Assembly: GCA_018664825.1 (NCBI GenBank)
Contig: JABJNO010000018.1
Location: 22,722-86,721, forward strand
Reading direction: 5' to 3'
Length of the DNA stretch: 64,000 nucleotides
Source of the DNA: Candidatus Parcubacteria bacterium
Lineage (GTDB): Bacteria > Patescibacteriota > Patescibacteriia > UBA1558 > GWA2-36-10
The notes under the pieces are model-generated. The model saw only the letters and a list, made by a program, of their open reading frames with translations, searched no databases and had not been told where the DNA came from. Position numbers and translations under genes: made by a program. Within the stretch, counting starts at the first letter, position 1. Each line of letters starts with the position of its first letter. Positions 10,825 to 64,000 of this stretch are shown here, piece by piece.

Positions 10825-10848
10825 TTTTGTATTTTTATTTTTTATAAA

Positions 10849-44188: not shown

Positions 44189-44848
44189 TTAAGAAGACGT
44201 ATTTGTAAACTCTACCTTTCCCCAAATTTGGTGTTTTTTGGCTAATTTTTTAGCTTTTTTTAATAAATGTTTATTTTTTACTATAGTCAAATTTCCTTCT
44301 ATTTGTATATCATCTGGAAGATCTTCTATCTCGGTCATGGACAATTTTAAGTCACCGACTATTCTCAACCTTTTTGGCAATTTTTTCATTTCAGTAAAAT
44401 GTATATAAGCATCTCCCAATATAGTCATATTGTCTGGTAAATCAAAATCCTCAAAACCCTCTATTTCAAAATGTTCATTTTTGTATATTACCTCTCTGGT
44501 TTCTGGTTTAAGAATAATATTCTCCTCAAACCACTCATCTGCATCTGACTGGGGAATTCCAGCGTCTTTATTTTTTGTTTCTCTACTGAGAAAAACCGCC
44601 CGTATAAGCTGGTCTTTTATTTTTTCTGGATCAAAAAAGAATTTTTTAATTCCATCCATAATAGCTATAAAAGAACTCCGTAATTCCTTTAAACGACGAG
44701 TGTCTTTGTTGGTAATACTGGAATAAAAAATTTCTCCACATTCTTCCATGAGTTTTTTTAAAAACTCCAGATCCCCTCTTAAATCTTTACAATTTTCTAT
44801 TGGCATAATATTTATTCTACTATAATTTTGCAATTTTAAAAACAGCAA
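44189..44848 (-). CDS. Long member (A) of the window-expanded Cys-motif family, with C-terminal LRR-like LPxxLxIxGxL repeats and a basic KKAKKLAKK tail
   Basis: The N-terminal motif is IENCKDLRGDLEFL. The FYV-equivalent is KKFFFDPEKI. The repeats are LPDNMTILGDAY, LPKRLRIVGDLKL and LPDDIQIEGNLTI. Confidence 0.5.
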   Translation of the reverse strand: MLFLKLQNYSRINIMPIENCKDLRGDLEFLKKLMEECGEIFYSSITNKDTRRLKELRSSFIAIMDGIKKFFFDPEKIKDQLIRAVFLSRETKNKDAGIPQSDADEWFEENIILKPETREVIYKNEHFEIEGFEDFDLPDNMTILGDAYIHFTEMKKLPKRLRIVGDLKLSMTEIEDLPDDIQIEGNLTIVKNKHLLKKAKKLAKKHQIWGKVEFTNTSS

Positions 44849-44876
44849 ACTAAATTGCTGTTTTTAAGTATAAGTT

Positions 44877-45089
44877 TTATTTCTTATCATCACCTTGAGC
44901 TTCTTCTTCGGCGCAAAATTCTTCGATTTGCGCTTCTAGCTCAGCGATGTCTTTTTCGGCTTGTTCTTTGAACTCTGTTAGTTCTTGGACCTCTTTGTCA
45001 AATTCCATTTTATCTAGTGTCTCTACAGTGTCTTTGGCCTCTTCTCCCATTTCTTGCCGAAAGCCTTGTCCCATTTTTTGTTCTGGCAT
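44877..45089 (-). CDS. Small acidic coiled-coil protein (70 aa) between family member A and the AAA+ gene
   Basis: It is an ORF with E/K-rich heptads. Confidence 0.35.
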   Translation of the reverse strand: MPEQKMGQGFRQEMGEEAKDTVETLDKMEFDKEVQELTEFKEQAEKDIAELEAQIEEFCAEEEAQGDDKK

Positions 45090-45134
45090 ATTTTTTCAAT
45101 TAAATTAATATTCTTATTAAATTACCTAATTTTA

Positions 45135-48032
45135 TTACGTTTTACCCTTAAGTGCACTTTTGATAAGCTCTCCTTTTGCATCCAAGTCCATACCATCAGC
45201 AGCACTCCTTGTCTCTTCATTTATTATACCTTTTTTCTGAAGTAAATCAAGTAGCATGTCATAAAAATCAGAACTTTCCTGAACAAACTCTTCGTCTGAT
45301 GTATTGTCTCTAAAGTCTTCATTAACGACTATCTCGCCATCTTTTCTCTCTACTAGCTTGGTTTTTTCTATATGTTCTCTATATTCTCTAATTTCAGATG
45401 CATTGTCAAATAAATCAGCCTGCAAAACCGCTACTTTGATTTCTCTAACATCTGTAATTAATCTTTGTACTTTTTCAGCCATTTCATCAATTCCAGCCAT
45501 TTCTTTGTAGACTCCTTGCATTTTTTCATACTCAGCTTTCTTTCTTGGTGGTAGATAACCAAATAACAATTGTAAAGTCTCCAGTGAGGAGAAATATTGT
45601 ATATTGTATTTACCATCGGTATTGAGTAATCCAGCTGCATCACCATTTTGATTGATTGATTTGTATTTGTCTATAGATTTATGAGGATTAAATGAAGTTA
45701 GAGTCTTTTGCCAATTTTTTAAATTTTCCTCCTGATCTCCTCCGGTTGTTGTGGTATAATCTGGCCATTTTTCACTACTCTGAAAAAAGCCTGCTTTTTC
45801 TAAAATAGAATAAATAATTACTTGCTCTTCTGGAAATTGATCATACTTTCTAATATACTTATATAGATAATATTCAATATCCATATTGGTACCTTCATCC
45901 ATGTATCCGCCAATTACATTATCAATCAACTCACGCATAGTAAGATTTGATTTTTTTAATTTATCACTATAATTGGTGGTAGTACCAGCCCCAATGAGTT
46001 GATCAAGATTTCTAAACTCAGGCAAATTTTCCGCACTACCTTCAAACATATCCATAATAATGCGAGCACCCATACTCAAGCGATATATATCCTTGAATAC
46101 AGAAAACCTATCTTCCTGCTTGACCAAAAGCTCTGCACCCATCCTGTCATTAAGAAGTTTGACCAACAACACTTGGAAAATTTGATCGTGCTTGGCTCTT
46201 TCTTTTGATTTTTTAACAACTTCCATAGCTTCTGGAAAATCCGCAAAAGCAGTATCGGCTAATTTTTCTAAATCAAGCCTACCCAAAAGTTCATCAATAT
46301 TTGACACCTCTCTTGATTGAGGAAGGTATCCCATCTTGATTGGGTGGATTCTACTATATGAAGCTGGATCCATATCGTTGTATCTAGCCTGCTTGTATCT
46401 TTCACCGGTATTACCAGTCCAGATCACACAATAACCATCTTTGACTTGAATATCTCCGGAGTCAGTCCTAGTCTGGATGATGTCACCGGGTTTTTTGGTA
46501 AGTAGATCATTGAAGGCAATCAATACCTCTGGAGTAATAGCATTGGCCTCATCAATAATCAAGGGTTTACCTTCGGTCATGGCTTTGTACATAGCACCTA
46601 GAACATAACGCCCCTGTACCTGATTGCCAAATAAACCTTCTAATTGCTGTTCTATGTCTGCAGAAAATTCTTCTGGTAATTTTTCTTTATTATCTTCTAC
46701 ATATTGATCAAATTTTTCTTTATCAAAATCTTCACCAGGATTGGCGTGATCAAAATCTTCTTTCAATCTATTCAAGACAATTGTATCTCTAAAATCACCT
46801 TTACGCTTTGCAAGCTCTGCCATTAATACATCGTCTGGAACACTATCGTCAAAAATCTCACCAGTACCTGAGTCTTTGTTTAAAATATTTAAAACTTCAG
46901 AAAGTGATAATTTTTGAATTTTAAATTCTTCGGTAAATCTATCAGGATCCAAAAATTTACTACCCGAAACTATGATAGGCTCATTCTTGAATCTAGTACG
47001 AGATAGATGCACAGCTAAAGCGGTTTTCCCGGTACCAAAGTCTCCATGAAGATACACGATGGTCGGGGGTCTTTTTGTCAAAGAAGGCATAGCCTCTTCT
47101 ATAATCTTTTTTACATAGTCTGTTTCTACTATTTTACCTGTATTTAATAATTCATGTAGATATTTCATTTCCTTGCTATAATTTACATAAGCAGGAATAA
47201 AATCTTTTTCTACTATATTGCCCTGTTCATCATATGTTGCCTCTGTGCCCAGTTTGTATTCAGTATTATATTTTTTGGCAGCCAACCTCTCTACTCTACT
47301 CGTAGACTTCTGCATCTTTTCTTCATCTACTCCGTGAATCCTAGCTTTTTCACCCTGAGTACGCAAAGAATCTTCATTACGACTAACATTGGCCATATGG
47401 ATTCCCCTTTTGACAGTTTCAATCTGACGTAAAGAGTCCCTCACTTCTGGCAATGAACTTCTAGAATATGCTTTTATTTTTTGAATATCTTCTTCTTCAT
47501 AAGCATCCATCTCTTCACTCAAGGTACTATAATGTGCCTCCATTAAGACATCAAATCTAGCCAGTTTACCCAAAGTACGGACTTCTACCTCTGCTTCCAT
47601 CTCTCTTTCTTTTTTGGCGTCTCTTGCATGAACCCCGTTGACGTCCAAAATCTTTTTTCTTTCTGTCTTATCTATAGAGTCCATGAGCATTTCCATAAAA
47701 ACATCCCTATCAACTCCCCACACAGCATCAAAATCAGCGAGTCTTATAGGATGAGCAAATTTATTTTTTGGATCAGCTTCTTGAGCATTTTTCAAATGCT
47801 CTTGAACAACAGCCTTTAAATCATCTGGCAAAGTATCAAATACCTCTGAGGTCACCAAATTTTCATAAGTCATGTACTTTTTGATCTCATCAAAAATAGA
47901 CAACATCTGCTCTCGCTTGATTTTGTACTCATAAGCCAATCTCTCTGCCTCCAAAGCCTCTGCTACTTCCGCTCTCTGCTCTTCATCATTTAGCTCTGGT
48001 GAAGGTATGGTTGGCATTCTTGATTCTTTCAT
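45135..48032 (-). CDS. Very large (965 aa) AAA+ ATPase of the MoxR/AAA_5-like type, with about 320-aa N-terminal and about 350-aa C-terminal extensions
   Basis: Walker A reads VYLHGDFGTGKTALAV. Walker B reads KPLIIDEANAI. Sensor-1 is WTGNTGERY. An insertion sits between Walker A and B. Confidence 0.7.
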   Translation of the reverse strand: MKESRMPTIPSPELNDEEQRAEVAEALEAERLAYEYKIKREQMLSIFDEIKKYMTYENLVTSEVFDTLPDDLKAVVQEHLKNAQEADPKNKFAHPIRLADFDAVWGVDRDVFMEMLMDSIDKTERKKILDVNGVHARDAKKEREMEAEVEVRTLGKLARFDVLMEAHYSTLSEEMDAYEEEDIQKIKAYSRSSLPEVRDSLRQIETVKRGIHMANVSRNEDSLRTQGEKARIHGVDEEKMQKSTSRVERLAAKKYNTEYKLGTEATYDEQGNIVEKDFIPAYVNYSKEMKYLHELLNTGKIVETDYVKKIIEEAMPSLTKRPPTIVYLHGDFGTGKTALAVHLSRTRFKNEPIIVSGSKFLDPDRFTEEFKIQKLSLSEVLNILNKDSGTGEIFDDSVPDDVLMAELAKRKGDFRDTIVLNRLKEDFDHANPGEDFDKEKFDQYVEDNKEKLPEEFSADIEQQLEGLFGNQVQGRYVLGAMYKAMTEGKPLIIDEANAITPEVLIAFNDLLTKKPGDIIQTRTDSGDIQVKDGYCVIWTGNTGERYKQARYNDMDPASYSRIHPIKMGYLPQSREVSNIDELLGRLDLEKLADTAFADFPEAMEVVKKSKERAKHDQIFQVLLVKLLNDRMGAELLVKQEDRFSVFKDIYRLSMGARIIMDMFEGSAENLPEFRNLDQLIGAGTTTNYSDKLKKSNLTMRELIDNVIGGYMDEGTNMDIEYYLYKYIRKYDQFPEEQVIIYSILEKAGFFQSSEKWPDYTTTTGGDQEENLKNWQKTLTSFNPHKSIDKYKSINQNGDAAGLLNTDGKYNIQYFSSLETLQLLFGYLPPRKKAEYEKMQGVYKEMAGIDEMAEKVQRLITDVREIKVAVLQADLFDNASEIREYREHIEKTKLVERKDGEIVVNEDFRDNTSDEEFVQESSDFYDMLLDLLQKKGIINEETRSAADGMDLDAKGELIKSALKGKT

Positions 48033-48065
48033 ATTTTTTTGAAAAATAATCTTTATCTCTTATAT

Positions 48066-48094
48066 ATAATAAAATTTATATCACTTTAAGTCAA
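48066..48094 (-). promoter_or_regulatory. Putative promoter (TTGACT-17-TATTAT) upstream of the AAA+ gene
   Basis: The minus strand reads ttgact-17-tattat, about 30 nt upstream of the ATG. Confidence 0.3.
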
Positions 48095-48095
48095 T

Positions 48096-51000
48096 CTATT
48101 TTTCTATTCCATCTAGAATTTCATTCATACTTTTCTCAACTTTTTCGGCAATAATTTTTTTGAGCAGCCTGCTAAAAGATTCAACAATTTGCTCGGGAGT
48201 ATTGGCGCGGATTACATTTTCCTTGCCATGTCTTTCGCTAAGACCCTCAAGGGCTGCCTCATCTCCTTCGTGATCACCAATTGCAAACCCACCAACTCCA
48301 ATACCCGTCTCTCCTTTGAAAGCAGCTAAATTTTCATTGGCTTCTTCATTTTTGCCCAAAAATCCACCGTCACAAATTTGGATTACTACTTCAGTCAATT
48401 TGTTATCAGCAATCATTTGTTTGAGCTCTGGATCATTACGATCTCTGAGCATCTTGATCCATAGATCTGCATCAAAGGTGACTTCGCTAGCATTTATTTT
48501 TTTAAATGCCCTCAGGGTACTGATAGTCTCTGCGTCAATGTCTATTTGTGGTTTTTCAGATTCTTCGTCATCCAAAAATGATAGATCCTGCACATCAAAT
48601 TCTTTTATTTTTCTGGCCTCACCATCGTTTCCAAAAAGCCATAATTGAGTGTCACAAATTATATCCAAATTTTCTGGAGCACTATCACCCAAAATCTCTC
48701 TCATTTTGTCTCTAAACAATATCCTAAAAGATCTTAAAGAAGAGTTGAGTAACATTATAGACATGCGCATTTGATCAATCTTACCGCTCATACTACCAGA
48801 ATTATCAATTGCCAAAGTCATGCGCAACATTTTTGGTCTGAGTTCTGAAATAACTCTTTCTACAAGTTGTTCGTAAATAAGTCTATCATCAACCTCAATT
48901 CCCATTTCTATTTCTGGAAAATGTTTTTGCAATCTTTTGACGTCCAATTTTCCACTACGATAATATTTGTCTTTAAAGACTTCGATACGACTAGCAATAT
49001 TGTTTACTACCTCTAGCCAATTTTTGGCCATCTTGTCAGCATAGGGCCTTATCTTTTTTTCTAGTTCTATAAAATCTTTGACAACCCCCTCATTGCTAAG
49101 GTCTTTTCCAGACCAACCACTGTCCGCATCATCGCCCGCTTCAGCCTCTGCTTTGTCCAGGGCTTCCAATAATTTTTTTATCCTAGCTTTGTCGTATTTA
49201 GCTTCTTTATACTCTTCTGATTTTTTGGCTTCTTCTAATTCTCTTAGATTGGCCTCCCTTTGATCTTGCTCTATCATTTGTTCTAGAGCTTCTTTGAGAG
49301 GATTTACAATATCTTTTAGGTCAGTATCATCACCATCTTGATCTTCGGGATTTGTCTCTTGTGGATCACCTTCTCCATCTTCATTATCGTCATCGTCGTC
49401 TCCATCTTCATTGTCGTCGTCTTTATCATCAAAATAATTTTTACGTTTATCAGGTGAAGATTTTGAAGATTTTCCCTTTTGTTTTTTTTGATCTTTATTA
49501 TATAAATTTAAATTAACATACGGATCAAACACTTCTTGTATATCATAAGTGTAATCTGTACTACCTGCCATAGCCTGTACTTCTCTCTCTTCAGAATATT
49601 CTACGGTTACAGAAATTACCTCTCCATCTTTTCCTTCTGTCACTTGGGTAATTATACCTATCTTTCCTCTGTTTGGATCATTTTTATCCACATTGATAAT
49701 TTTGTCACCCTGAGACCAAACTTTCTCTTCCATGTCTGGATCACCACCATCACCGCCATCACCACCTTCTCCTTCGCCTTTTTCTTCTGGCATTGTGACA
49801 TCAAAGCTATCATCCAAAATACAAAGCATAGTAAATATCGGCTCCAAAGTAGTCCTCATTATTTTACTTCTTTCGCTTTGATTATGTTTTAGGGGAAATG
49901 TCCAAGAATATTTTTTTGATTTTGTTTTAGTCTTAAATTCTTCAAAAATATCCAAAAAACTCACGTCTTTTTTTCTCTCTATACCTAATTGAGCTATTAC
50001 TTTTCTCAACCCTGCCTTGTACTGCATCTTGGCTCTTTTGGTATTTACTTGATCAGTAGTCAGGTTGTCAAAAAAATCATTCATCCTGCGGATAAACTCT
50101 GGTTGATTGTTTTTATGTTTTTTATATATTGTATGTAATCCTGGGACAGCAGATAGATTCATAACATTTGACTGAAAATCTGGGTCAACTTCTTCGACCT
50201 TGCCATTTCTTTCTTCAAAATTGGCTACCTTGACAGTAGTAGTCATAAATTCAATATATCTTTTGAGTTGAGCTGGGTCGTCTTTGTATTTTTCCAAAAC
50301 CTTGTTGAGTAATTCTTCATACACTTCGTCTATTGGGCCATTGAGAGCCCTTTCCACATCTTCGTGTACCACAAATTTTCCATTTGGATTTTCTGGACTC
50401 TGGATATCATCTTCATCAAGATCCAACATTTGATTTTTTATAAAAAAAGTCATAAATTGACCAGATCTCATCATGTCTGGTTTTACTTTGGTAAAATCAA
50501 TACCTTGTTCATGGTCTTCGGCTGTAAGTTTGACCAAATTTCCTTTGCCTTTACCAACTTTTTTTATTTCTTTCTTGTCTGGGTTTTTAGGATCTTCTAC
50601 TTCTGCGTATTCCCCGTTACCCTCTCCTACTTCGTTGTACATTACAAAAAGAAGATCGGTATAAGCATCTTTTATTTCTTGGGCTCTTTTTGGAGATACA
50701 TTTTCTCCAAAGTGAGCTGTTTGTTTGACCAGATGATTGACAATCCCATCTTCTAAAACATTATAAAAATGTCTATAAGTATTAAAAAGAGAAAGTGTTT
50801 TTTGTGAATTATCCTTATCACGCATTCTTTTTCTTTCTTCGTATTTGAATTGAGCTATCTGACCATGTTTACCAGCTGGATCAAGCTCTTCCATGGTTTT
50901 ACGATGAGCAAACTCATGAAGCATACCAAACATAATTTGTTCTATATTCATGCCTGTGCCTTCTTTTGAGTTTTTGAATTCTGGCACACTCAAACAAATA

Positions 51001-51257
51001 GTATCAATGCTAGCTGCATAAGAAAAACCCATTCCAAAAACCATGTTGAAACGGGCATTTTTACCTTCCAAAAATGTTCCTATTGTGTCGAGATGTTGCT
51101 GGGCCCACTCACTCATTTCGTCCCTATATGGCCACAGCTCTTTGGGTACACCATTTTGATCCTTGTTTGGATCTTGTTCTGGCTCTTTCTTACCCTTTTT
51201 ATCACCTCCGTCAGCTTGTACTGACATTTCAATTTTAGATCTTCCTTCAAATGACAT
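48096..51257 (-). CDS. 1053-aa protein with an N-terminal HExxH metallopeptidase-like domain (DUF2201_N-like), a poly-acidic linker and a C-terminal von Willebrand A domain with a MIDAS motif
   Basis: It carries MFGMLHEFAHRK (HExxH), DDKDDDNEDGDDDDDNEDGEGD and TLAIDNSGSMSG (DxSxS MIDAS). It lies immediately upstream of the AAA+ gene. Confidence 0.7.
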   Translation of the reverse strand: MSFEGRSKIEMSVQADGGDKKGKKEPEQDPNKDQNGVPKELWPYRDEMSEWAQQHLDTIGTFLEGKNARFNMVFGMGFSYAASIDTICLSVPEFKNSKEGTGMNIEQIMFGMLHEFAHRKTMEELDPAGKHGQIAQFKYEERKRMRDKDNSQKTLSLFNTYRHFYNVLEDGIVNHLVKQTAHFGENVSPKRAQEIKDAYTDLLFVMYNEVGEGNGEYAEVEDPKNPDKKEIKKVGKGKGNLVKLTAEDHEQGIDFTKVKPDMMRSGQFMTFFIKNQMLDLDEDDIQSPENPNGKFVVHEDVERALNGPIDEVYEELLNKVLEKYKDDPAQLKRYIEFMTTTVKVANFEERNGKVEEVDPDFQSNVMNLSAVPGLHTIYKKHKNNQPEFIRRMNDFFDNLTTDQVNTKRAKMQYKAGLRKVIAQLGIERKKDVSFLDIFEEFKTKTKSKKYSWTFPLKHNQSERSKIMRTTLEPIFTMLCILDDSFDVTMPEEKGEGEGGDGGDGGDPDMEEKVWSQGDKIINVDKNDPNRGKIGIITQVTEGKDGEVISVTVEYSEEREVQAMAGSTDYTYDIQEVFDPYVNLNLYNKDQKKQKGKSSKSSPDKRKNYFDDKDDDNEDGDDDDDNEDGEGDPQETNPEDQDGDDTDLKDIVNPLKEALEQMIEQDQREANLRELEEAKKSEEYKEAKYDKARIKKLLEALDKAEAEAGDDADSGWSGKDLSNEGVVKDFIELEKKIRPYADKMAKNWLEVVNNIASRIEVFKDKYYRSGKLDVKRLQKHFPEIEMGIEVDDRLIYEQLVERVISELRPKMLRMTLAIDNSGSMSGKIDQMRMSIMLLNSSLRSFRILFRDKMREILGDSAPENLDIICDTQLWLFGNDGEARKIKEFDVQDLSFLDDEESEKPQIDIDAETISTLRAFKKINASEVTFDADLWIKMLRDRNDPELKQMIADNKLTEVVIQICDGGFLGKNEEANENLAAFKGETGIGVGGFAIGDHEGDEAALEGLSERHGKENVIRANTPEQIVESFSRLLKKIIAEKVEKSMNEILDGIEK

Positions 51258-51266
51258 AGGCTAAAA

Positions 51267-51295
51267 TTACATACTTTATTATAATACATTTTTAC
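51267..51295 (-). promoter_or_regulatory. Consensus sigma70-type promoter TTGACA-17-TATAAT driving the vWA/AAA+ pair
   Basis: The minus strand reads ttgaca (51290-51295 RC), a 17-nt spacer, then tataat (51267-51272 RC), about 20 nt upstream of the ATG at 51257. Confidence 0.45.
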
Positions 51296-51335
51296 TAAAA
51301 TGTCAAAAAATACCCCGTTTCTACCCCTTTTTTAC

Positions 51336-51962
51336 TTAATTAATGACTGTTATTTGTCCTTTTTCCTTTAATTCTTTGGCTCTATCCAGTAAATCAGCAT
51401 CAACATGTATAATAACCGCCCTCAAATCATCTGGTAAATCAGTCAGCCCAGTACGCCTTATAAACAATTCGTTGACTGTCATCCCCGATGGTAACTCATC
51501 TAGCTTGGTACCAGTCAAACGTAAATCTTCTTTGATCTGTAAATTTTTTGGCAATCTGACAACATCACAATTTTTTAGCTGCAAATTTCCTCCGATTATC
51601 AAATTGTCCGGTAAGGTAGTAAATTTTTTATCATTAAAATGCCTAGGAGCATGAAGCTGTGTTTCCATCTCATCTCTATAGATCATAACTCTAGAACCAA
51701 TCAGCTCTCTTGCCTCTACCTCGTCTTGTGCTTCACCTACTTCTACAAAAAACTGTGCCCAAGAATTTTCTGTTTTGATAACAAAAATATCTTTTTTTAT
51801 TTCTCCTATCTCTACCAATATTGCGTCTTTTAATTTAAACAAACCATCCCTATCTTCTCTTTTGGCAGAAGCTAGGGCAGTCTCCAATTTTTTTATTGTA
51901 ACTCTGGCAATAACAACCCTATCAAATAGTTGCTGACAATTTTTAGGTTTTGTATCTGGCAT
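51336..51962 (-). CDS. Long member (B) of the Cys-motif family with four LRR-like LP repeats and a basic tail; directly abuts the rmuC stop
   Basis: It carries KPKNCQQLFDRVVIARV...AQFFVEVGEA. The repeats are LPDNLIIGGNLQL, LPKNLQIKEDLRL, LPSGMTVNELFI and LPDDLRAVIIHV, ending KELKEKGQITVIN. Confidence 0.5.
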   Translation of the reverse strand: MPDTKPKNCQQLFDRVVIARVTIKKLETALASAKREDRDGLFKLKDAILVEIGEIKKDIFVIKTENSWAQFFVEVGEAQDEVEARELIGSRVMIYRDEMETQLHAPRHFNDKKFTTLPDNLIIGGNLQLKNCDVVRLPKNLQIKEDLRLTGTKLDELPSGMTVNELFIRRTGLTDLPDDLRAVIIHVDADLLDRAKELKEKGQITVIN

Positions 51963-53009
51963 TTATTCTAATCTTGGTTTTTCAACATCCTCCAATTCTA
52001 ACTCTCCGCCCTTGCCACTAATCTTTAAGATATCTTTATCTATTTTCTTAAACTCCTTACTAGAAAAATTATAGGCATTGGCAACTGTACCTAGGTGAGT
52101 ACCTAGTTTTTTATGATACTCAGCATAGGCTAACATGTGTTTTTGTAATTTCTCTACATTTTTACGTATTTCTTTGGCGGATTCTTCTATCTGCAAAGCC
52201 TTGAGCCCTTGTAAGACAGTCTGCAGGTAGGCCGCAAAAGTAGTCGGTGATACAATGATTACTTTTTTCTCATTGAAAGCATAGTCAATCAAAGATCTTG
52301 TGTTTACCTTGACTGCTCCTACTTCGTTTATAAGTAAATCATAATATATCCCCTCAGCCGGAATAAACATAAAAGCAAAATCCAAGGTACCTTCATTTGG
52401 TCTGATATATTTTGCAGTTTCGTCAATACGTTTCTTCAAATCATTTTTAAATTCTTTTTCCAAAACCATTTTTTTGGCTTTATCTTTTTCATCTATAATA
52501 CGACGATAATTTTCTAAAGAAAATTTGGCATCAACTGGTAAAATCTTATCTTTTATTTTAACAATAGCATCAACAGCTTCACCATTTTTGAAATGGTACT
52601 GCATTTCATAATTTTGCGGTGGCAAAATATTTGATAAAATCATTTCTAAGCCTGCCTCACCAAGGTTGCCCCTAGTCTTGGCGTTGGTGAGTACTTTTTC
52701 TAAATTTTGTAGTTGATCTGTAAATCCTACTACCTGCTTGTTTGTTTCCTCCAATTTCAAAAGCTTCTCGGTCATTTCTTTGGAAATACGAGAAGTCTCC
52801 ATAAATTGATCTTGTAGCATCTTGGAAGAGTGTTGGTTGGTTTTGTCTATCTTTTCACCTAGTTGTTGAGTAAGATTATTTATCTGTTGTTGCAACATCA
52901 ACATTGCCTTGTCATCTTTTTTTTCTTCGACAGGAGCCCGTTTTTTCATCAAAAACCAGATTATCGCCCCGACGCCGACTACTATTAAGATTGTATTTAG
53001 ATATTCCAT
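51963..53009 (-). CDS. rmuC: DNA recombination protein RmuC
   Basis: It has an N-terminal TM, a coiled coil, and a C-terminal RmuC nuclease-like domain (FMFIP...VIIVSPTT). Confidence 0.8.
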   Translation of the reverse strand: MEYLNTILIVVGVGAIIWFLMKKRAPVEEKKDDKAMLMLQQQINNLTQQLGEKIDKTNQHSSKMLQDQFMETSRISKEMTEKLLKLEETNKQVVGFTDQLQNLEKVLTNAKTRGNLGEAGLEMILSNILPPQNYEMQYHFKNGEAVDAIVKIKDKILPVDAKFSLENYRRIIDEKDKAKKMVLEKEFKNDLKKRIDETAKYIRPNEGTLDFAFMFIPAEGIYYDLLINEVGAVKVNTRSLIDYAFNEKKVIIVSPTTFAAYLQTVLQGLKALQIEESAKEIRKNVEKLQKHMLAYAEYHKKLGTHLGTVANAYNFSSKEFKKIDKDILKISGKGGELELEDVEKPRLE

Positions 53010-55226: not shown

Positions 55227-55484
55227 TTATTTAATATTATCTTCCCTGAAGGATATTCGAGAACCATCTCCTATCGTATCCTTAACATGTGCAAATTCAT
55301 CCTTCAATATTTTGAATCTTCTACTAAACTCATCTCTTGCCGCAACAATCAAGTGTAAGTCTCTTGACTCCCCCAGCACGTCAATTTGTTTTGAAATATC
55401 CTCACTTAATCCTCTTGAAATTTCAATATCTATTCTAAGGGTTTTACATATATTCGATTTATAAACTCTCAATTTCATAAGCAA
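55227..55484 (-). CDS. Cys-motif family member (85 aa)
   Basis: It carries SNICKTLRIDIEISRG and IVAARDEF. Confidence 0.45.
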   Translation of the reverse strand: MLMKLRVYKSNICKTLRIDIEISRGLSEDISKQIDVLGESRDLHLIVAARDEFSRRFKILKDEFAHVKDTIGDGSRISFREDNIK

Positions 55485-55513: not shown

Positions 55514-55729
55514 TTATTCAAATAAATTATTCGCTTCCATTTCTATAGACTGTGGCAAAATCCCCCTTAGGGTTCTATACTTTATAATCAACTTATCTCT
55601 AGCATCAATAGCCGGTTCAATGTTTCCTGTTTTTTTTGTTTTTTCAACCTCTATTAAAACATCTTCATTCCATTCGCGCAATTTTTCAATCCCCCCTCTC
55701 ATTTCTTTACATATGTGTGATTTAGTCAT
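55514..55729 (-). CDS. Cys-motif family member (71 aa), ATGA-coupled to the metG stop
   Basis: It reads MTKSHICKEMRGGIEKLREW. Its start overlaps the metG stop. Confidence 0.45.
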   Translation of the reverse strand: MTKSHICKEMRGGIEKLREWNEDVLIEVEKTKKTGNIEPAIDARDKLIIKYRTLRGILPQSIEMEANNLFE

Positions 55730-59915: not shown

Positions 59916-61184
59916 TTATTTTTTTAATATATTTAAAAATTTATTTTTATTTTCAAATGTCCCAATGATTGCCAAATTTGATTGTTTCCAATCTACGATA
60001 TCTTTGGCAGCTTTATTGACCTGGAGTAGTGTGATTTTGTCTAGCTCGGCTAGTTTTTTCTCAAGATCTTTGATTTCTTTTTGTAAAAACTCTTGTGATA
60101 TCAAAAAGTTGAGATGAGCACCTGCATTTTCCATTTTCAAAATTGTGCGACCACGGATATTATCCTTGGCTTTCTGAAGCTCTTCTTTTGTTATTCCTTT
60201 ATATTTTACATCATTTAGCTCTTTTTTGATAGCTTCCAAAGCTTCATAGATTTTCTCTTTATTTAGGCCCGCGTGTACCAAAAATCCACTAGTATCTGTA
60301 TAACCACTCAAAGATGCTTTGATAAAATAACAAAGTCCTTTTCTTTCGCGGATATTGAGAAACAAACGAGAACTCATAGTGCCCCCTAGGATATTGGCTA
60401 GTAGCTGATTGTGCAAAAACTCTTTTTTGACACTAGCTATACTACGAAATCCAAGCATAAGCTGAACTTGTTCTACATCTCTTTTAAAAATTTTTACTCT
60501 GGGCGATGCTTGTTTGAAAGTTGCTAATTTTTTGCTTTTTACTCTGGCCTGTTTTTTGCCTACTGGAAAAAGTTTATCTATAAGTTTCAAGGCTTGTTTT
60601 TCATCAAATTTTCCAGCTACACCTATAACAGCATTACCATTGTAATAATATTTTTTGTAATAATTGTACAAAGTATTTCGAGACATTGTCTGGATATTTA
60701 CCCTAGGTCCTGCAATAGACATACCCAAATCACTTTTATCAAAAAGCAACATCTCAAATACATCTTCTATGTGCATCAAAGGATTGTCTTCGTACATATT
60801 TATTTCTTCGACGATCACTCCTCTTTCCCTGTCTACTTCTTTGGGATCAAATTTTGAATTGTGAATCATGTCAGAAATCATATCAGCAGCCAAAGGCAAA
60901 TGTTTGCTATCAGCTGTGATGTAGTAGCCCGTGTATTCTTTGCCTGTAAAAGCATTGTAATCAGCCCCAATACCATCTAGCTCTCGAGAAATATCGACAG
61001 TGTGTGGTCTTCGCTCGGTGCCTTTGAACATCAGGTGTTCCACAAAATGAGAAGCGCCGTTGTTTTTTTTATTTTCTTGACGTGAGCCTACTTTAAACAA
61101 AATCTCAAAAGTAGCTGCCTTGGTGTCTTTTTTGGGTGCCAAGATTATGACACTACCGTCTTTTCTTTCTATTCTTTTAAACAT
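59916..61184 (-). CDS. M16-family (pitrilysin-like) zinc peptidase
   Basis: It carries the inverted HxxEH motif (HFVEH). Confidence 0.75.
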   Translation of the reverse strand: MFKRIERKDGSVIILAPKKDTKAATFEILFKVGSRQENKKNNGASHFVEHLMFKGTERRPHTVDISRELDGIGADYNAFTGKEYTGYYITADSKHLPLAADMISDMIHNSKFDPKEVDRERGVIVEEINMYEDNPLMHIEDVFEMLLFDKSDLGMSIAGPRVNIQTMSRNTLYNYYKKYYYNGNAVIGVAGKFDEKQALKLIDKLFPVGKKQARVKSKKLATFKQASPRVKIFKRDVEQVQLMLGFRSIASVKKEFLHNQLLANILGGTMSSRLFLNIRERKGLCYFIKASLSGYTDTSGFLVHAGLNKEKIYEALEAIKKELNDVKYKGITKEELQKAKDNIRGRTILKMENAGAHLNFLISQEFLQKEIKDLEKKLAELDKITLLQVNKAAKDIVDWKQSNLAIIGTFENKNKFLNILKK

Positions 61185-61204: not shown

Positions 61205-61549
61205 TTAAATTCTTTTAAAATAATATTCTTTTTGTTCTATTTGTTTTTTTATTTCGTTGTTATCAAGCTGAGCCATGGCGGCCATATCTTTGGAGGCGAT
61301 AACATTTTGAGTTTTATTTAATTCAATAATTCTCTCTGAGTACATTTCTCTTAATTTCAATAATTCTCTATCCACATAAAAATTATCCAAAACATACCTC
61401 AGGTCTGTAGCGGCCCGTTGGATGGCAAATTTGATATGCCCCTTTCCCCGATCAATAATCCCTTGGAAAATTTCATCATGCTCTGCCTTGAATTCCTCGA
61501 CTTGCTTGAATTCGTTTTTTAATTGTTCACAAACTTCTGTTTTAATCAT
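61205..61549 (-). CDS. Tandem-array Cys-motif family member 5 of 5 (114 aa)
   Basis: It carries MIKTEVCEQLK...DNFYVDRELL...VIASKD. Confidence 0.5.
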   Translation of the reverse strand: MIKTEVCEQLKNEFKQVEEFKAEHDEIFQGIIDRGKGHIKFAIQRAATDLRYVLDNFYVDRELLKLREMYSERIIELNKTQNVIASKDMAAMAQLDNNEIKKQIEQKEYYFKRI

Positions 61550-61833
61550 CTAAAAAATTTATCCTTTAAAAAATAAGGTACCCTGTCTTTTATCAATTTA
61601 TCTTTCATTGATTCTAATTCTGTAGGAGTCCAGAACCCTGTATAATTATCATCATTTTTATAACTACCTATACTACGTAAAATATGAGGATCAACATAAA
61701 AGGCATTTATAGCATCCCTAATGCTAGTAAGTTTGACTCCAAAATCTTTATCACCCGCAGCAATGCTCGTCAACTGAAGTCCCGTGATAGTAATTTCGTT
61801 TCTTAACTCTTCACAAAGCTCTACTTTATTCAT
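61546..61833 (-). CDS. Tandem-array Cys-motif family member 4 of 5 (95 aa)
   Basis: It carries MNKVELCEELR...NAFYVDPHIL...VPYFL, with ATGA overlaps on both sides. Confidence 0.5.
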   Translation of the reverse strand: MNKVELCEELRNEITITGLQLTSIAAGDKDFGVKLTSIRDAINAFYVDPHILRSIGSYKNDDNYTGFWTPTELESMKDKLIKDRVPYFLKDKFFR

Positions 61834-62164
61834 AAGGCTCTTGTAAAAAATAAGGTATACCCTTGGCTCTTTCTTCTTTTATCTGCTTCTTCATGCTTGT
61901 TTTAATTTTTTCTAACTTTTCAGCTTTTTCTGCACCAACAAATTTTAGGTATATCAAATCTATCCCTTGCCGATAAATATCTAGAGCTGTTTGATTCATA
62001 TAAAACTCATCAATTTTGTCTTGAATAAATTCACTCTGCTCTATTGTGGCCTTTCTTACTTCTTCCAAGCCTAAATTTTTTATATCAAAATCAAACTTAT
62101 CCAAATATCCTCTGACAGTTATTATATCGGCTCTAAGTTTTTCACAGACTTCTGTTTTAGTCAT
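61826..62164 (-). CDS. Tandem-array Cys-motif family member 3 of 5 (112 aa)
   Basis: It carries MTKTEVCEKLRADI...DEFYMNQTAL...IPYFL. Confidence 0.5.
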   Translation of the reverse strand: MTKTEVCEKLRADIITVRGYLDKFDFDIKNLGLEEVRKATIEQSEFIQDKIDEFYMNQTALDIYRQGIDLIYLKFVGAEKAEKLEKIKTSMKKQIKEERAKGIPYFLQEPYE

Positions 62165-62507
62165 CTAGTTTCATCGTCTTAAAATATGGAATTTTTCTTA
62201 TCTTTTGCTCGAACACCATGTCTTCAAATTTTCTAACATCACTTGAAAGAATTTTGAATAATACATGGAACTCTTCTTGATTGGTTTTAAGGTTTGAAAG
62301 TTTCTTCTCTGCTTTTTCTAATAAACTTAATGTAGCAGGGCGTACATAAAAATTGTCTATGTTGTTCCTAGCCTGCTTTAAAGCTTCTACTAGGTCATCC
62401 AGAATAGCCATATCCCGACTAGCTATCATATTATGAATAGCCTGCATTTCATCTTTCAGTACACCAAAATCTATTCTTATTTTTTCGCAAACTTCTACTT
62501 TAGTCAT
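62157..62507 (-). CDS. Tandem-array Cys-motif family member 2 of 5 (116 aa)
   Basis: It carries MTKVEVCEKIR...MIASRD...DNFYVRPATL...IPYF. Confidence 0.5.
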   Translation of the reverse strand: MTKVEVCEKIRIDFGVLKDEMQAIHNMIASRDMAILDDLVEALKQARNNIDNFYVRPATLSLLEKAEKKLSNLKTNQEEFHVLFKILSSDVRKFEDMVFEQKIRKIPYFKTMKLDD

Positions 62508-62841
62508 TTATCTTTTCTCTTAAAAAATATGGAATTTTTTCTTTTCTCATCCTCTCTACTTTGGGTGCCAAGTGTTTGTATAGTCTAATATCAAAATTAG
62601 GACTTCCTTGAGGCATTTTCTCAAAATGTAAATAATGCTTTAAAATTCTTGACTCTACATAAAATTCATCCATCCTATCCTTGATAAAATCAATCATCTC
62701 ATCAATAACCAAATCTTCTTCAAGTTGTTTCAATAATTTTAAATCACGGCTAGCTATAACTTTATTGATTCCACCTTGCAGTGATCCTTTTAATATAGCA
62801 ATGTCTGCCTTGAGTTTTTTACATTCTTGTAGTTTAGTCAT
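62500..62841 (-). CDS. Tandem-array Cys-motif family member 1 of 5 (113 aa)
   Basis: It carries MTKLQECKKLKADI...VIASRD...DEFYVESRIL...IPYFL. Confidence 0.5.
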   Translation of the reverse strand: MTKLQECKKLKADIAILKGSLQGGINKVIASRDLKLLKQLEEDLVIDEMIDFIKDRMDEFYVESRILKHYLHFEKMPQGSPNFDIRLYKHLAPKVERMRKEKIPYFLREKIND

Positions 62842-63389
62842 TATCTTATTTCAAATTTTTCTATCTTTCCCTCTTTTTTCAATCTCTCGGCATCTTTTTT
62901 GTGCTTTTTGTTTATAATCAGTTTACCCGTGACATAAAGATTGAGTGGTAGCTCAAAAAGATTTGTCCAATCTGAGACATCTAGATCTCCTTCAAATTCC
63001 AAATCTTCTGCCAAAACTGATAATTTAGCATTTTTTAAAACAAAGGAACGCGGAATAACAACTTTTTTTCTATCATGATCAATATGCACATATTTTTTTA
63101 TAAAAGAATAAATCCTATGACGATCCTCTCCCATGCCCTTGGTTGCTTTTATATAATGTACAAGTGCGTTTCTTATAAACTCCTCCAAATCCGCCCCCTC
63201 AGGCCTGTCACGAAGTACGGGATAATTTCTTTTATTCCCATATTTATAAATCCTTCTCTTCAAAAATTTTAATTCTTCAAGCCCACCCTTATCTTCTAGC
63301 ATACTTAGATTAATAGAAAAATCTCTTAGCCTTTCTTTGGCTATAGCAATAGAATCTCTAAAATGCTGACAATCTGGAAATAAAATCAT
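62841..63389 (-). CDS. Long member (C) of the Cys-motif family with an LRR-like C-terminal part and a basic tail; TAATG-coupled to glyS
   Basis: It carries FPDCQHFRDSIAIAKERLRDF, then LEFEGDLDV and LPLNLYVTGKLII, ending KKDAERLKKEGKIEKFEIR. Confidence 0.5.
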   Translation of the reverse strand: MILFPDCQHFRDSIAIAKERLRDFSINLSMLEDKGGLEELKFLKRRIYKYGNKRNYPVLRDRPEGADLEEFIRNALVHYIKATKGMGEDRHRIYSFIKKYVHIDHDRKKVVIPRSFVLKNAKLSVLAEDLEFEGDLDVSDWTNLFELPLNLYVTGKLIINKKHKKDAERLKKEGKIEKFEIR

Positions 63390-64000
63390 TAGCCTAATTT
63401 ATTTTCAAAATATTTATCAAGCTCATCTATAGCTATACGATCTTGCTCCATGGTATCTCTGTCTCTGATAGTCACTTGCTTGTCTTCCAGGCTATCAAAA
63501 TCTATAGTCACACAATACGGAGTACCGATTTCGTCTTGACGACGATAACGTTTACCAATGGCCTGCGTCTCATCATAGACACATACAAAATTTTGTTTGA
63601 GCTTCATCAATATATCTCGAGATAGATTGGCTAGTGGTTCTTTTTTGGATAAAGGTAAAACCGCAATCTTGATAGGAGCCAAGGCATAAGGAAGTTTCAA
63701 AACAACTTCTTTGTCCTTGATGGCCTTGGTGGTAGTACTACGACCACCCTCTATCTCTGTATAAGCAGCCAACATGACAGCCAAAAATGATCTATCTACT
63801 CCCAAGCTAGGTTCGATGACGTGAGGTAAATATTTTTCATTGGTAATTGGATCTCTATAAGTCAAATCTTGTTTTGAGTGTTTTTGGTGTTGACTAAGGT
63901 CATAATCAGTACGATAAGCCAATCCCCAAAGCTCTTTTTGTCCAAATGGAAATTTGTATTCAAAATCAATGGTTCGCTTTGAATAAAAAGCCCTGTCTTT
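63389..64000 (-). CDS. glyS: Glycyl-tRNA synthetase (dimeric alpha2 class II type), C-terminal part; the gene continues beyond the window
   Basis: The reading frame stays open to position 64000 (KDRAFYSKRTIDFEYKFPFGQKELWGLAYRTDYDL...). The anticodon-binding domain tail reads VTIRDRDTMEQDRIAIDELDKYF. The apparent Met in the track at 63922 is a TTG codon. Confidence 0.75.
   Translation of the reverse strand, partial: KDRAFYSKRTIDFEYKFPFGQKELWGLAYRTDYDLSQHQKHSKQDLTYRDPITNEKYLPHVIEPSLGVDRSFLAVMLAAYTEIEGGRSTTTKAIKDKEVVLKLPYALAPIKIAVLPLSKKEPLANLSRDILMKLKQNFVCVYDETQAIGKRYRRQDEIGTPYCVTIDFDSLEDKQVTIRDRDTMEQDRIAIDELDKYFENKLG

Follow-up and report, generated by a model that had tools for sequence, protein, structure and literature searches.

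A lineage-specific tandem array of small helical paralogs, inserted between the GlyRS and M16 peptidase genes of a Parcubacterium

The 64,000-nucleotide stretch of Candidatus Parcubacteria DNA analyzed here (contig JABJNO010000018.1, positions 22,722 to 86,721; hereafter the window) contains five small, overlapping genes that resemble each other and are placed between the genes for glycyl-tRNA synthetase (GlyRS) and an M16 peptidase. This arrangement raises the question of what kind of proteins the five genes encode, where they came from, and what such proteins may do in the middle of a housekeeping gene string.

Array architecture and insertion site

Five minus-strand open reading frames for proteins of 95-116 aa had been predicted at 61205-62841, and were found exactly at these positions. 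In the direction of transcription, the first is paralog 1 (62500..62841, 113 aa, HON36_04370, cluster P0001), which starts with MTKLQECKKLK and contains the motifs DEFYV and IPYFL. It is followed on the same strand by paralog 2 (62157..62507, 116 aa, HON36_04365), paralog 3 (61826..62164, 112 aa, HON36_04360), paralog 4 (61546..61833), which is the shortest of the five with 95 aa, and paralog 5 (61205..61549, 114 aa, HON36_04350), which has the C-terminus YYFKRI. The genes had been thought to overlap by ATGA at every junction. This was true for paralogs 4 and 5 (4 nt), whereas the other three junctions have 8-nt overlaps, ATGACTAA between paralogs 1 and 2 as well as between paralogs 2 and 3, and ATGAATAA between paralogs 3 and 4.

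Upstream of paralog 1, the inserted block begins with a gene for a 182-aa leucine-rich-repeat (LRR) protein (62841..63389, minus strand), and 1-nt TAATG overlaps couple this gene both to paralog 1 and to the stop codon of GlyRS. The upstream flank is the 3' part of the GlyRS gene (63389..63922, minus strand; the full gene matches Pfam tRNA-synt_2b/HGTP_anticodon), and the downstream flank is the gene for the M16 (insulinase-type) peptidase (59916..61184, minus strand; Pfam Peptidase_M16 and M16_C, 5e-38 and 5e-39). The successive overlaps from GlyRS to paralog 5 are 1, 1, 8, 8, 8 and 4 nt, and a gap of 17 nt separates the stop of paralog 5 from the start of the M16 gene. Promoter- or terminator-like sites were not in excess across the array region. 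The wider neighborhood codes for ClpB, an HTH protein, GlyRS, the M16 peptidase, an AI-2E transporter, RsmI, and MetRS.

The array was located between the GlyRS and M16 genes in all three genomes that have members of the family. In four more distant relatives (L002, L003, L005 and L007), the GlyRS gene directly adjoins the M16 gene, which shows that the LRR gene and the five paralogs are a lineage-specific insertion, stitched stop-to-start into a conserved housekeeping string. Two other genomes (L004 and L008) carry different cargo at this junction, and the M16 gene was found in 80 relatives, with or without the array. Seeded with the C-terminus of GlyRS, a scan of metagenomes identified distant relatives (68% identity or less), and no arrays were present among the matches listed.

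A diverged paralog family and its LRR-bearing relatives

The five array proteins are significant paralogs. Pairwise BLASTP and phmmer comparisons (E 1e-9 to 1e-3) linked them into a connected network, and self-matches to the family HMM ranged from 1e-30 to 1e-47. The N-terminal pattern M-(T/I/N)-K-x-(E/Q)-x-C-x-x-(L/I)-(R/K) is present in all of them, and none of the proteins has a cysteine other than the one in this pattern, Cys7. These 11 residues are the best-conserved stretch in otherwise diverged sequences. Gene conversion, an RNA signal or another cause at the nucleotide level does not fit this conservation and was excluded because the copies use different synonymous codons. In the family alignment, conservation is spread across the N-terminus, the middle and the C-terminus. 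The shared internal motifs of the original prediction held up in part. FYV is found in four proteins and reads FYM in the fifth (W_112). IAS(R/K)D is present in only three and is not a motif common to all; in the 114-aa protein, a motif of this type is found at a non-homologous position (aa 83-88, vs 28-33). The expected IPYF-type end was confirmed in the form of PYF or YYF near the C-terminus of all five proteins.

Ten copies of the family had been counted in the window. A local jackhmmer search united eight of these by their N-terminal module, the five array proteins and the products of 44189-44848, 55514-55729 and 55227-55484, but the N-terminal homology of the other two was not significant. 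Two of the additional members are mini-paralogs on the minus strand. The gene for the first (55514..55729, 71 aa, HON36_04310) has a start that overlaps the MetRS stop codon by ATGA and encodes a protein beginning with MTKSHICKEMR; it is missing from the same junction in L002, L003 and L004. The second (55227..55484, 83-85 aa) contains YKSNICKTLRIDI and has its likely true start at the ATG at 55478. The third additional member is a long paralog of 205-219 aa (44189..44848, minus strand, cluster P0014), included by jackhmmer and matched by the family HMM with E = 4e-5. Here, the N-terminal module (MPIENCKDLR ... FFFDP) is fused to LRR repeats with a KK..GKV tail. In the AlphaFold model of this protein, the LRR part has a pLDDT of 79-92, and the N-terminal part is of low confidence. 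LRR was the sole fusion partner found for the confirmed module.

The long paralog is encoded by the last gene of an inserted island at 44-52 kb, 10 kb from the array. The first gene of the island (51336..51962, minus strand) starts immediately past the RmuC stop codon and encodes a protein of 208 aa that has a Cys close to the N-terminus (MPDTKPKNCQQLF) and carries LRR repeats in its C-terminal part. The 182-aa protein at the head of the array is built similarly, with an N-proximal Cys7, a helical N-terminal part, C-terminal LRR-type beta-solenoid repeats, and a KKEGKIEKFEI tail. All three long proteins contain the tandem repeats of about 20-24 residues (LxxLxLxxN/G) that are the mark of an LRR beta-solenoid. 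The 182-aa and 208-aa proteins thus resemble the long paralog in their N-proximal Cys pattern and LRR C-terminus. However, jackhmmer and hhalign did not detect significant homology of their N-termini to the five paralogs, and the profile-profile comparison of the small family with these two proteins gave an hhalign probability of 4%.

A long-form profile that included the 182-aa protein matched Vibrio FlrP (PDB 8Z5U chain 0) with E = 2e-18 over three repeat stretches, and all three long proteins of the window have the same type of repeat as FlrP, with about 20 residues of the form LPxxLxVxGxLxL. FlrP, however, is a Sec-exported flagellar-rod spacer, whereas the LRR proteins of the window lack a signal peptide and have an N-proximal Cys in a helical N-terminal module. 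The proteins share the repeat fold only, not function.

Between its two LRR genes, the island contains a gene for a 965-aa MoxR-like AAA+ ATPase with a Pfam AAA_5 domain (45135-48032) and a giant gene for a 1053-aa protein with a DNSGS MIDAS-like motif (48096-51257). A vWA domain in the latter was not confirmed by Pfam or a PDB sequence search, only the DNSGS motif being present. An HMM search did not detect the N-terminal module on either protein (E > 3). Outside the window, N-terminal modules of Buchananbacteria proteins were a candidate link (hhalign probability 23%), and a WD40 domain was seen only in one of these weakly linked proteins (P0017). Database matches that seemed to make P0017 and P0018 relatives of the module arose from their own relatives included in the query.

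Distribution, evolution and predicted fold

When 1.84 billion cluster representatives were scanned in full with the family HMM, nine true members were identified, all from three contigs, and word-indexed searches of 5.8 billion proteins agreed with this distribution. The top match of the scan, an 851-aa repeat protein (P0008), was treated as a false positive because its score comes from 15 repeats of a short "INGFYV" stretch. The family is thus known from only three closely related uncultured Parcubacteria, which form a narrow clade related to Komeilibacteria.

Gene content of the array varies among the three genomes, that of the window, L001 and L082. The window and L001 arrays have three ortholog pairs; two genes are specific for the window (paralogs 2 and 4, which have orthologs in neither L001 nor L082) and one for L001. 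The L082 array consists of four other members, two of which are a local duplicate pair, and its genes for proteins of 124 and 116 aa belong to the same clade as paralog 5. This pattern shows that the family grew by tandem duplication, followed by birth-and-death within one narrow Parcubacteria clade.

The orthologs on L001 allowed an estimate of selection. Paralog 1 and its ortholog are 57% identical (dN/dS 0.25), paralog 3 and its ortholog 71% (dN/dS 0.15), and paralog 5 and its partial ortholog 60% (dN/dS 0.38). The 182-aa LRR protein and its ortholog are 72% identical (dN/dS 0.27). For comparison, GlyRS is 97% identical to the L001 copy, with a dN/dS of 0.05 and a dN of 0.03, against a dN of 0.18-0.30 in the four pairs. 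At the amino-acid level, the array has diverged about 6-10 times as much as the neighboring GlyRS. With dN/dS values of 0.15-0.38, the array genes are coding, constrained and fast-evolving, and they are under relaxed purifying selection, rather than under positive selection averaged over the whole gene. The original prediction would have failed if the reading frames were not conserved as coding in relatives, but they are preserved in all three genomes. The array is 99.97% identical on five further contigs, each from a different sample or run accession, so it is neither hypervariable at present nor an actively switching cassette. Samples that contain the organism are JGI 3300072015, 3300037805 and 3300028195, ENA ERZ4231634, and SRR12939122.

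All ten candidate proteins were compared with Pfam, NCBIfam, PADLOC and PHROGs, with chance-level matches only. In Pfam and NCBIfam, nothing passed the threshold (best E at least 0.0015), and the small-family HMM, run against PDB sequences, gave no match with E below 0.07. A tblastn search of phage GenBank sequences and a scan of IMG/VR identified no relatives, and no relevant account of small tandem paralogs in Patescibacteria came up in a literature search. The prediction that the family can be assigned to no described one was thus borne out, and no characterized family, housekeeping or other, was matched. Signal peptides and transmembrane segments are absent from the array proteins. As suggested originally, the structure of one member was predicted. 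The AlphaFold model of paralog 1, obtained from only 11 sequences, is confident (pLDDT 83.5) and all-helical, with five main helices and a short C-terminal helix. Foldseek did not find a specific structural match for the model. The products of the array are therefore small (about 100 aa), cytoplasmic, all-helical proteins with one invariant cysteine.

A possible adaptor role and its alternatives

The analysis supports the view that the five genes belong to one diverged paralog family and form a dense tandem array with translational coupling. The observations taken together are best explained, if only tentatively, by an orphan helical family in a coupled insertion that acts as a set of non-enzymatic binding or adaptor subunits. 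That the five proteins have this role is our best guess, made with low confidence from their architecture alone. The array genes are probably co-transcribed and translationally coupled with the surrounding housekeeping genes, and the products would therefore be made together in roughly fixed proportions. The conserved residues of the family are Cys7 and Leu10 at the start of helix 1, the Phe-Tyr pair F60/Y61 in the turn between helices 3 and 4, and the Tyr-Phe pair Y105/F106 after helix 5 (numbered as in the model). From the predicted order of the helices, rather than from coordinates, these residues would come together at one end of the bundle. This end could be a constant docking or oligomerization surface, with the variable, indel-rich helices at the opposite end supplying diversified specificity. 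The presence of the same module on an LRR protein that flanks the AAA+ gene and the giant gene with the MIDAS-like motif suggests that the small paralogs pair with module-bearing partners. Redox, metal or covalent chemistry would be an equally good reading of the single conserved Cys.

Such pairing would resemble the effector-associated adaptor domains (EADs) of NTPase-centered bacterial conflict systems, for which the adaptor concept was developed (Kaur, Burroughs, Iyer & Aravind 2020, PMC7159879). Like the array module, EADs are small, non-enzymatic and mostly all-helical, and occur in several copies per genome; according to the AlphaFold model and the jackhmmer search, the window has such a helical domain in eight proteins. 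Both are found either standalone or fused N-terminally, including to repeat domains that form larger structures. In both, adjacent copies are mutual closest relatives, and the distribution is strongly lineage-specific. As in EAD systems, one module-bearing protein of the window is encoded next to a MoxR-like AAA+ gene. There are also differences. No Pfam family was matched beyond chance (E ≤ 1), and therefore none of the EAD families held by Pfam. Unlike in EAD systems, no core NTPase, vWA or VMAP protein with a copy of the module was detected, and no enzymatic effector partner was found. Fusions both to a core (VMAP, iSTAND, GAP1, Ubl) and to an effector, which characterize EADs, were thus not seen. 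In contrast to EADs, the copies in the array are mostly standalone and part of a housekeeping operon, and the host is a Parcubacterium with a tiny genome, whereas EAD hosts are multicellular bacteria.

A bolder version of the adaptor reading would make the module an undescribed homotypic adaptor of Patescibacteria that couples the small paralogs, the LRR proteins and possibly a WD40 protein (Buchananbacteria P0017) to a MoxR-like AAA+/vWA-like core (45135-51257). We consider this version unlikely. If true, it would define a system for conflict, immunity or host interaction that is particular to these ultra-small episymbionts and translationally coupled into housekeeping operons.

It is similarly unlikely that the proteins are secreted or host-directed effectors of an episymbiont, comparable to WXG100/Esx proteins, with the conserved N-terminus as an export signal. 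Patescibacteria are largely epibionts, as stated in one account (PMC12102498), LRR-bearing relatives are typical of host-binding proteins, and it is the N-terminal 11 residues that stand out in these diverged sequences. WXG100/Esx proteins are likewise all-helical, with about 100 aa, and are also encoded by adjacent, co-translated genes, so that by analogy heteromers might be expected. However, none of 13 members has a W.G motif and Pfam WXG100 was not matched, the five main helices and short C-terminal helix contrast with a two-helix hairpin, and the EsxB match in Foldseek was one among more than 1000 equivalent helical matches. The proteins have no signal peptide, and neither a secretion ATPase (FtsK/SpoIIIE-type EssC/EccC) nor a secretion apparatus was found among the called genes within about 10 kb on each side.

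The original prediction had favored an analogy with diversifying cassettes, including immunity-protein arrays, anti-defense repertoires and orphan effectors. In the first case, each paralog would neutralize its own variant of a polymorphic toxin that comes from the cell itself or from competitors. Polymorphic-toxin immunity arrays do resemble the present one as tandem sets of fast-diverging, small cytoplasmic proteins with gene content that differs between close relatives, and the lack of a match to known families would fit such divergence. Against this reading, which we regard as rather improbable, no toxin domains or genes were reported among the called genes within about 10 kb on each side, and the same was true for toxin-like neighbors among called genes with Pfam matches, although several genes in this region are unannotated. 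The upstream gene encodes an LRR protein without a toxin module, and no recognized immunity family (Imm, SUKH, SMI1 and similar) was matched in Pfam or NCBIfam. Rather than lying among toxin cassettes in a mobile or variable island, the genes are embedded in a housekeeping operon and coupled to GlyRS, and the array is identical (99.97%) in contigs from five other samples. With no toxin, mobile-element or secretion partner found, the three analogies remained unsupported.

A role as thiol sensors or regulators, in which small helical oligomers would, like CsoR, RcnR or FrmR, sense metals, redox state or aldehydes through Cys7, has in its favor the presence of exactly one invariant Cys per protein and the appearance of FrmR and CsoR among the top Foldseek PDB matches (target-normalized TM-scores 0.4-0.5). 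However, these matches had E > 2 and a probability of at most 0.33, and Pfam Trns_repr_metal was not matched. The Cys is located in helix 1, without a conserved His or second Cys, whereas CsoR-type ligands are on helices 2 and 3, and five tandem, rapidly diverging copies would be unexpected for a sensor-regulator. We therefore consider this role quite improbable.

RiPP precursor peptides, with the conserved N-terminus as leader and the M16 peptidase as processing enzyme, would agree with tandem, coupled small genes next to a peptidase gene. This alternative is highly improbable. The M16 gene is also found beside GlyRS in relatives without the array and thus is not array-specific, no modifying enzymes were found among the called genes within about 10 kb on each side, conservation at both termini and in the middle does not follow a leader/core pattern, and a globular helical fold was predicted with confidence.

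The remaining alternative, that decaying duplicates or chance open reading frames in AT-rich DNA were mistaken for genes, would be in line with the AT-rich genome and the confinement of homologs to one clade, but the probability is close to negligible, since a confident fold was obtained from just 11 sequences, frames, start-stop overlaps and motifs are kept in three diverged genomes, and dN/dS values well under 1 in four ortholog pairs already refute it, unless the orthology assignments are wrong.

About half of the genes of Patescibacteria have no assigned function, and mediators of a symbiotic or conflict lifestyle are most likely to be found among the lineage-specific expansions of these tiny genomes. 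The locus adds a new family of proteins whose fold is predicted with confidence, with an invariant cysteine, a datable insertion followed by birth-and-death across three close genomes, and a genomic link to LRR proteins and an AAA+ ATPase island. As such orphan families are common in these genomes, interest in this one is only moderate. If the adaptor reading is wrong, the small size and probable solubility of the proteins would still make the family tractable for structural and interaction studies. If it is true, the adaptor-domain logic of bacterial immunity would extend to this lineage of the candidate phyla radiation.

The array and its gene chain

The five minus-strand ORFs lie exactly where the original prediction placed them, at 61205-61549 (114 aa), 61546-61833 (95 aa), 61826-62164 (112 aa), 62157-62507 (116 aa) and 62500-62841 (113 aa). 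Their paralogy was borne out by pairwise BLASTP and phmmer E-values of 1e-9 to 1e-3, which join them in a connected network. An HMM built from the five sequences found its own members at 1e-30 to 1e-47 among the 164 window ORFs of at least 60 aa. M1, K3, C7, F60, Y61, L67, Y105 and F106 were invariant in the alignment, and Cys7 is the sole cysteine in all five proteins. The shared motifs described earlier were essentially right, except that one FYV reads FYM and that only three of the five paralogs have IAS(R/K)D, the 114-aa protein at a position not homologous to that in the others. The longer form (V/M)IAS(R/K)DMA lies close to the N-terminus in the 116-aa and 113-aa paralogs, whereas the 114-aa paralog and its ortholog on the related contig L001 have it in their C-terminal halves (sites compared in the window, 61289-61306 and 62417-62434). 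Its differing position may point to an internal repeat or to a helix-capping motif that recurs.

An ATGA overlap had been claimed for every junction. It was found at one (4 nt), the other three being 8-nt overlaps (ATGACTAA at two junctions, ATGAATAA at one). The coupled chain begins one gene before the first paralog, with a 182-aa leucine-rich repeat (LRR) ORF (62841-63389). This ORF overlaps by a single base both the stop codon of the glycyl-tRNA synthetase (GlyRS) gene (TAATG) and, at its other end, the first paralog's start. A 17-nt gap separates the last paralog from the start of the M16 peptidase gene. Promoter-like and terminator-like sites were not enriched in the array region, consistent with one long transcript of the array and its neighbours. 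The GC content of the paralog genes (0.30-0.33) was slightly below the housekeeping value (0.37), GC3 was similar, and nothing in these values marks a recent acquisition.

Evolution and genomic setting

Two other contigs carry the small family. On L001 (NCBI PJEL010052469), GlyRS is followed by genes for proteins of 182, 105, 110 and 115 aa and by a gene truncated by the end of the contig; on L082 (Logan ERR15087771), it is followed by genes for 111, 131, 124 and 116 aa and then by M16. Between the window and L001, GlyRS was 97% identical (dN 0.03, dN/dS 0.05), whereas the array orthologs were 57-71% identical (59-71% over gap-free aligned positions), with dN of 0.19-0.30 and dN/dS of 0.15-0.38, and the 182-aa gene was 72% identical (dN 0.18, dN/dS 0.27). 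The array ORFs are therefore coding and under purifying selection, yet fast-changing, with amino acid change 6-10 times faster than in the adjoining GlyRS.

The related genomes, in which a look for copy-number variation had been proposed earlier as a check, also differ in the gene content of the array. The window and L001 arrays share three ortholog pairs; two genes (116 aa and 95 aa) are present only in the window and one (105 aa) only in L001. The four members on L082 are only loosely related to the rest, and two of them, of the 114-aa type, are local duplicates of each other. These differences in array content amount to birth-and-death evolution. Array contigs from five other sample/run accessions were one base off the window per 3-4 kb, indicating no ongoing hypervariation within the population.

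The setting was compared across 80 related Patescibacteria loci retrieved with the M16 peptidase. In the closest loci, one of them a Komeilibacteria MAG, M16 was 59-71% identical and the window's gene order was kept over more than 20 kb. GlyRS abuts M16 directly in L002, L003, L005 and L007, so the six-gene block is an insertion of the window's narrow lineage only. Two further loci carry different cargo at this junction: an ORF that is GIY-YIG-like by sequence motif and two large proteins rich in cysteine, of which the first has a hydrophobic N-terminus (L004, 5848-9982), and an ORF resembling an IS200-type transposase by eye with small ORFs (L008, 8541-9930). The GlyRS-M16 junction is therefore a recurrent variable spot.

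The same comparison identified two more window-specific insertions with family members. Directly after the methionyl-tRNA synthetase gene (MetRS) are two mini-genes (55514-55729 and 55227-55484), the former overlapping the MetRS stop codon by ATGA, and after RmuC is a 7.8-kb island (44189-51962) whose first gene starts directly behind the RmuC stop codon. All three blocks start exactly at the stop codon of a conserved housekeeping gene (63389, 55726-55729 and 51962-51965, with TAATG at GlyRS, ATGA at MetRS and TAAATG at RmuC), and two of the three upstream genes encode aminoacyl-tRNA synthetases. This could reflect permissive operon ends or a functional tie.

Distribution of the family and associated LRR proteins

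The small family is new and extremely narrow in distribution. Pfam, NCBIfam, PADLOC and PHROG models did not match it, in agreement with the earlier view that it could be assigned to no described family. A profile search that read every one of 1.84 billion cluster representatives (E <= 0.001) returned ten proteins, nine of them true members from the window, L001 and L082 contigs; the tenth was rejected as a repeat-protein artefact. Word-indexed searches of 5.8 billion proteins agreed with this result, and relatives were found in neither IMG/VR nor GenBank phages. NCBI labels the window copies 'hypothetical protein HON36_04350-04370, Candidatus Parcubacteria bacterium'. Patescibacteria genomes of this type frequently contain orphan families and small expansions confined to one lineage.

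A local jackhmmer search from one paralog converged on the 12 complete small members from the same three contigs and on three further window proteins (44189-44848, 55514-55729 and 55227-55484). The first of these, of 219 aa, carries the family's N-terminal module, with FFFDP as the counterpart of FYVDP, followed by repeats common to 51336-51962 and 62841-63389. These repeats match FlrP, an LRR beta-solenoid of the Vibrio flagellar motor (PDB 8Z5U chain 0, E = 2e-18), and AlphaFold predicted a solenoid for the repeats of the long forms (pLDDT 79-92). The N-termini of 62841-63389 and 51336-51962 have the N-proximal Cys pattern of the small family; their homology to it was not significant (hhalign probability 4%, neither picked up by jackhmmer). 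In a related Patescibacteria genome with the database label Gammaproteobacteria (L014, M16 47% identical), a 501-aa protein (4467-5972) has the LRR repeat type and C-terminal KLKKQGKIKGEIKV tail of the window long forms, indicating that the LRR-plus-tail domain is more widespread than the small family.

The island at 44189-51962 is lineage-specific and lies between RmuC and the genes preceding the ATP synthase operon. In transcription order, it encodes a 208-aa LRR protein (51336-51962), a 1053-aa acidic protein with HEFAH and LAIDNSGSM (MIDAS-like) motifs, a 965-aa ATPase with an AAA_5 (MoxR/dynein-type) domain, a 70-aa acidic protein, and the 219-aa protein with module and LRR repeats (44189-44848). 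Pfam did not identify a vWA domain in the 1053-aa protein; in its layout, the island resembles a MoxR/vWA-type pair with LRR proteins on either side. Elsewhere in the window (1528-12471), two very large ORFs of 3098 and 540 aa with similar hydrophobic N-termini (MKKF...AQDVFGVNDL and ...AQDVYGVNDL) probably encode paralogous surface proteins.

A small family of its own, with an N-proximal-Cys helical module (MPQLCPELTTKL...EDL..VRE...EFYV), occurs in one Buchananbacteria MAG (JBAYJR01). The module (L013, 16705-18527; L163, 10001-10434; L164, 10001-10246) is fused to WD40 repeats or to unknown domains of 350 or 252 aa, or makes up a whole protein by itself (81 aa), and its genes are dispersed among housekeeping genes. 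A relationship to the window family may be considered a weak lead (hhalign probability 23%).

Predicted structure and possible function

Structure prediction, suggested earlier for one member, gave a confident helical AlphaFold2 model of the 113-aa paralog (11-sequence alignment, mean pLDDT 83.5, pTM 0.56), with helices at 3-31, 34-41, 44-61, 64-75, 85-101 and 105-108. Judging from the helix order, the start of helix 1 (Cys7, Leu10), the turn between helices 3 and 4 (Phe60-Tyr61) and the C-terminal Tyr-Phe should meet at one end of the bundle, and the indel-rich segments (about 20-50 and 70-95) would lie towards the opposite end. Foldseek searches of PDB and BFVD returned no match below E = 1 and thus no specific structural relative. 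Neither a hydrophobic segment fit for a signal peptide or membrane helix nor a WxG motif was present in the paralogs.

The paralogs are presumably non-enzymatic, since they are small helical bundles in which one Cys is the only conserved residue of polar/catalytic type. They may act through binding, with a constant end that would dock or oligomerise and variable helices that would give specificity, and they might pair with module-bearing LRR partners. The effector-associated adaptor domains known from NTPase-centred conflict systems (PMC7159879) would offer a parallel to such pairing. We put forward non-enzymatic binding proteins with constant and variable ends, and possible module-bearing LRR partners, as a tentative reading. 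A distinctly more doubtful proposal is a Patescibacteria-specific adaptor module through which the small paralogs and proteins with repeat domains would be tied to a MoxR-like core.

Alternatively, the array might encode immunity, anti-defence or effector proteins, as the original prediction proposed from its tight, diverging tandem arrangement. However, these readings lack the partner that would define them, be it a toxin, a mobile element or a secretion system. The genes beyond the window, upstream of GlyRS, are ordinary ones that include an HTH gene and ClpB, and the called-gene tables list neither a toxin nor a secretion family among them. Readings of the paralogs as thiol sensors, RiPP precursors or junk ORFs each conflict with specific results.

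Tandem amplification, coupling to housekeeping genes, relaxed purifying selection and a turnover of genes among close genomes characterise the family. Its N-terminal module has additional copies in the genome, and one such copy is joined to LRRs next to an AAA+ ATPase gene. The array is genuine and represents a new orphan family, with an interesting evolutionary pattern and a usable predicted fold.
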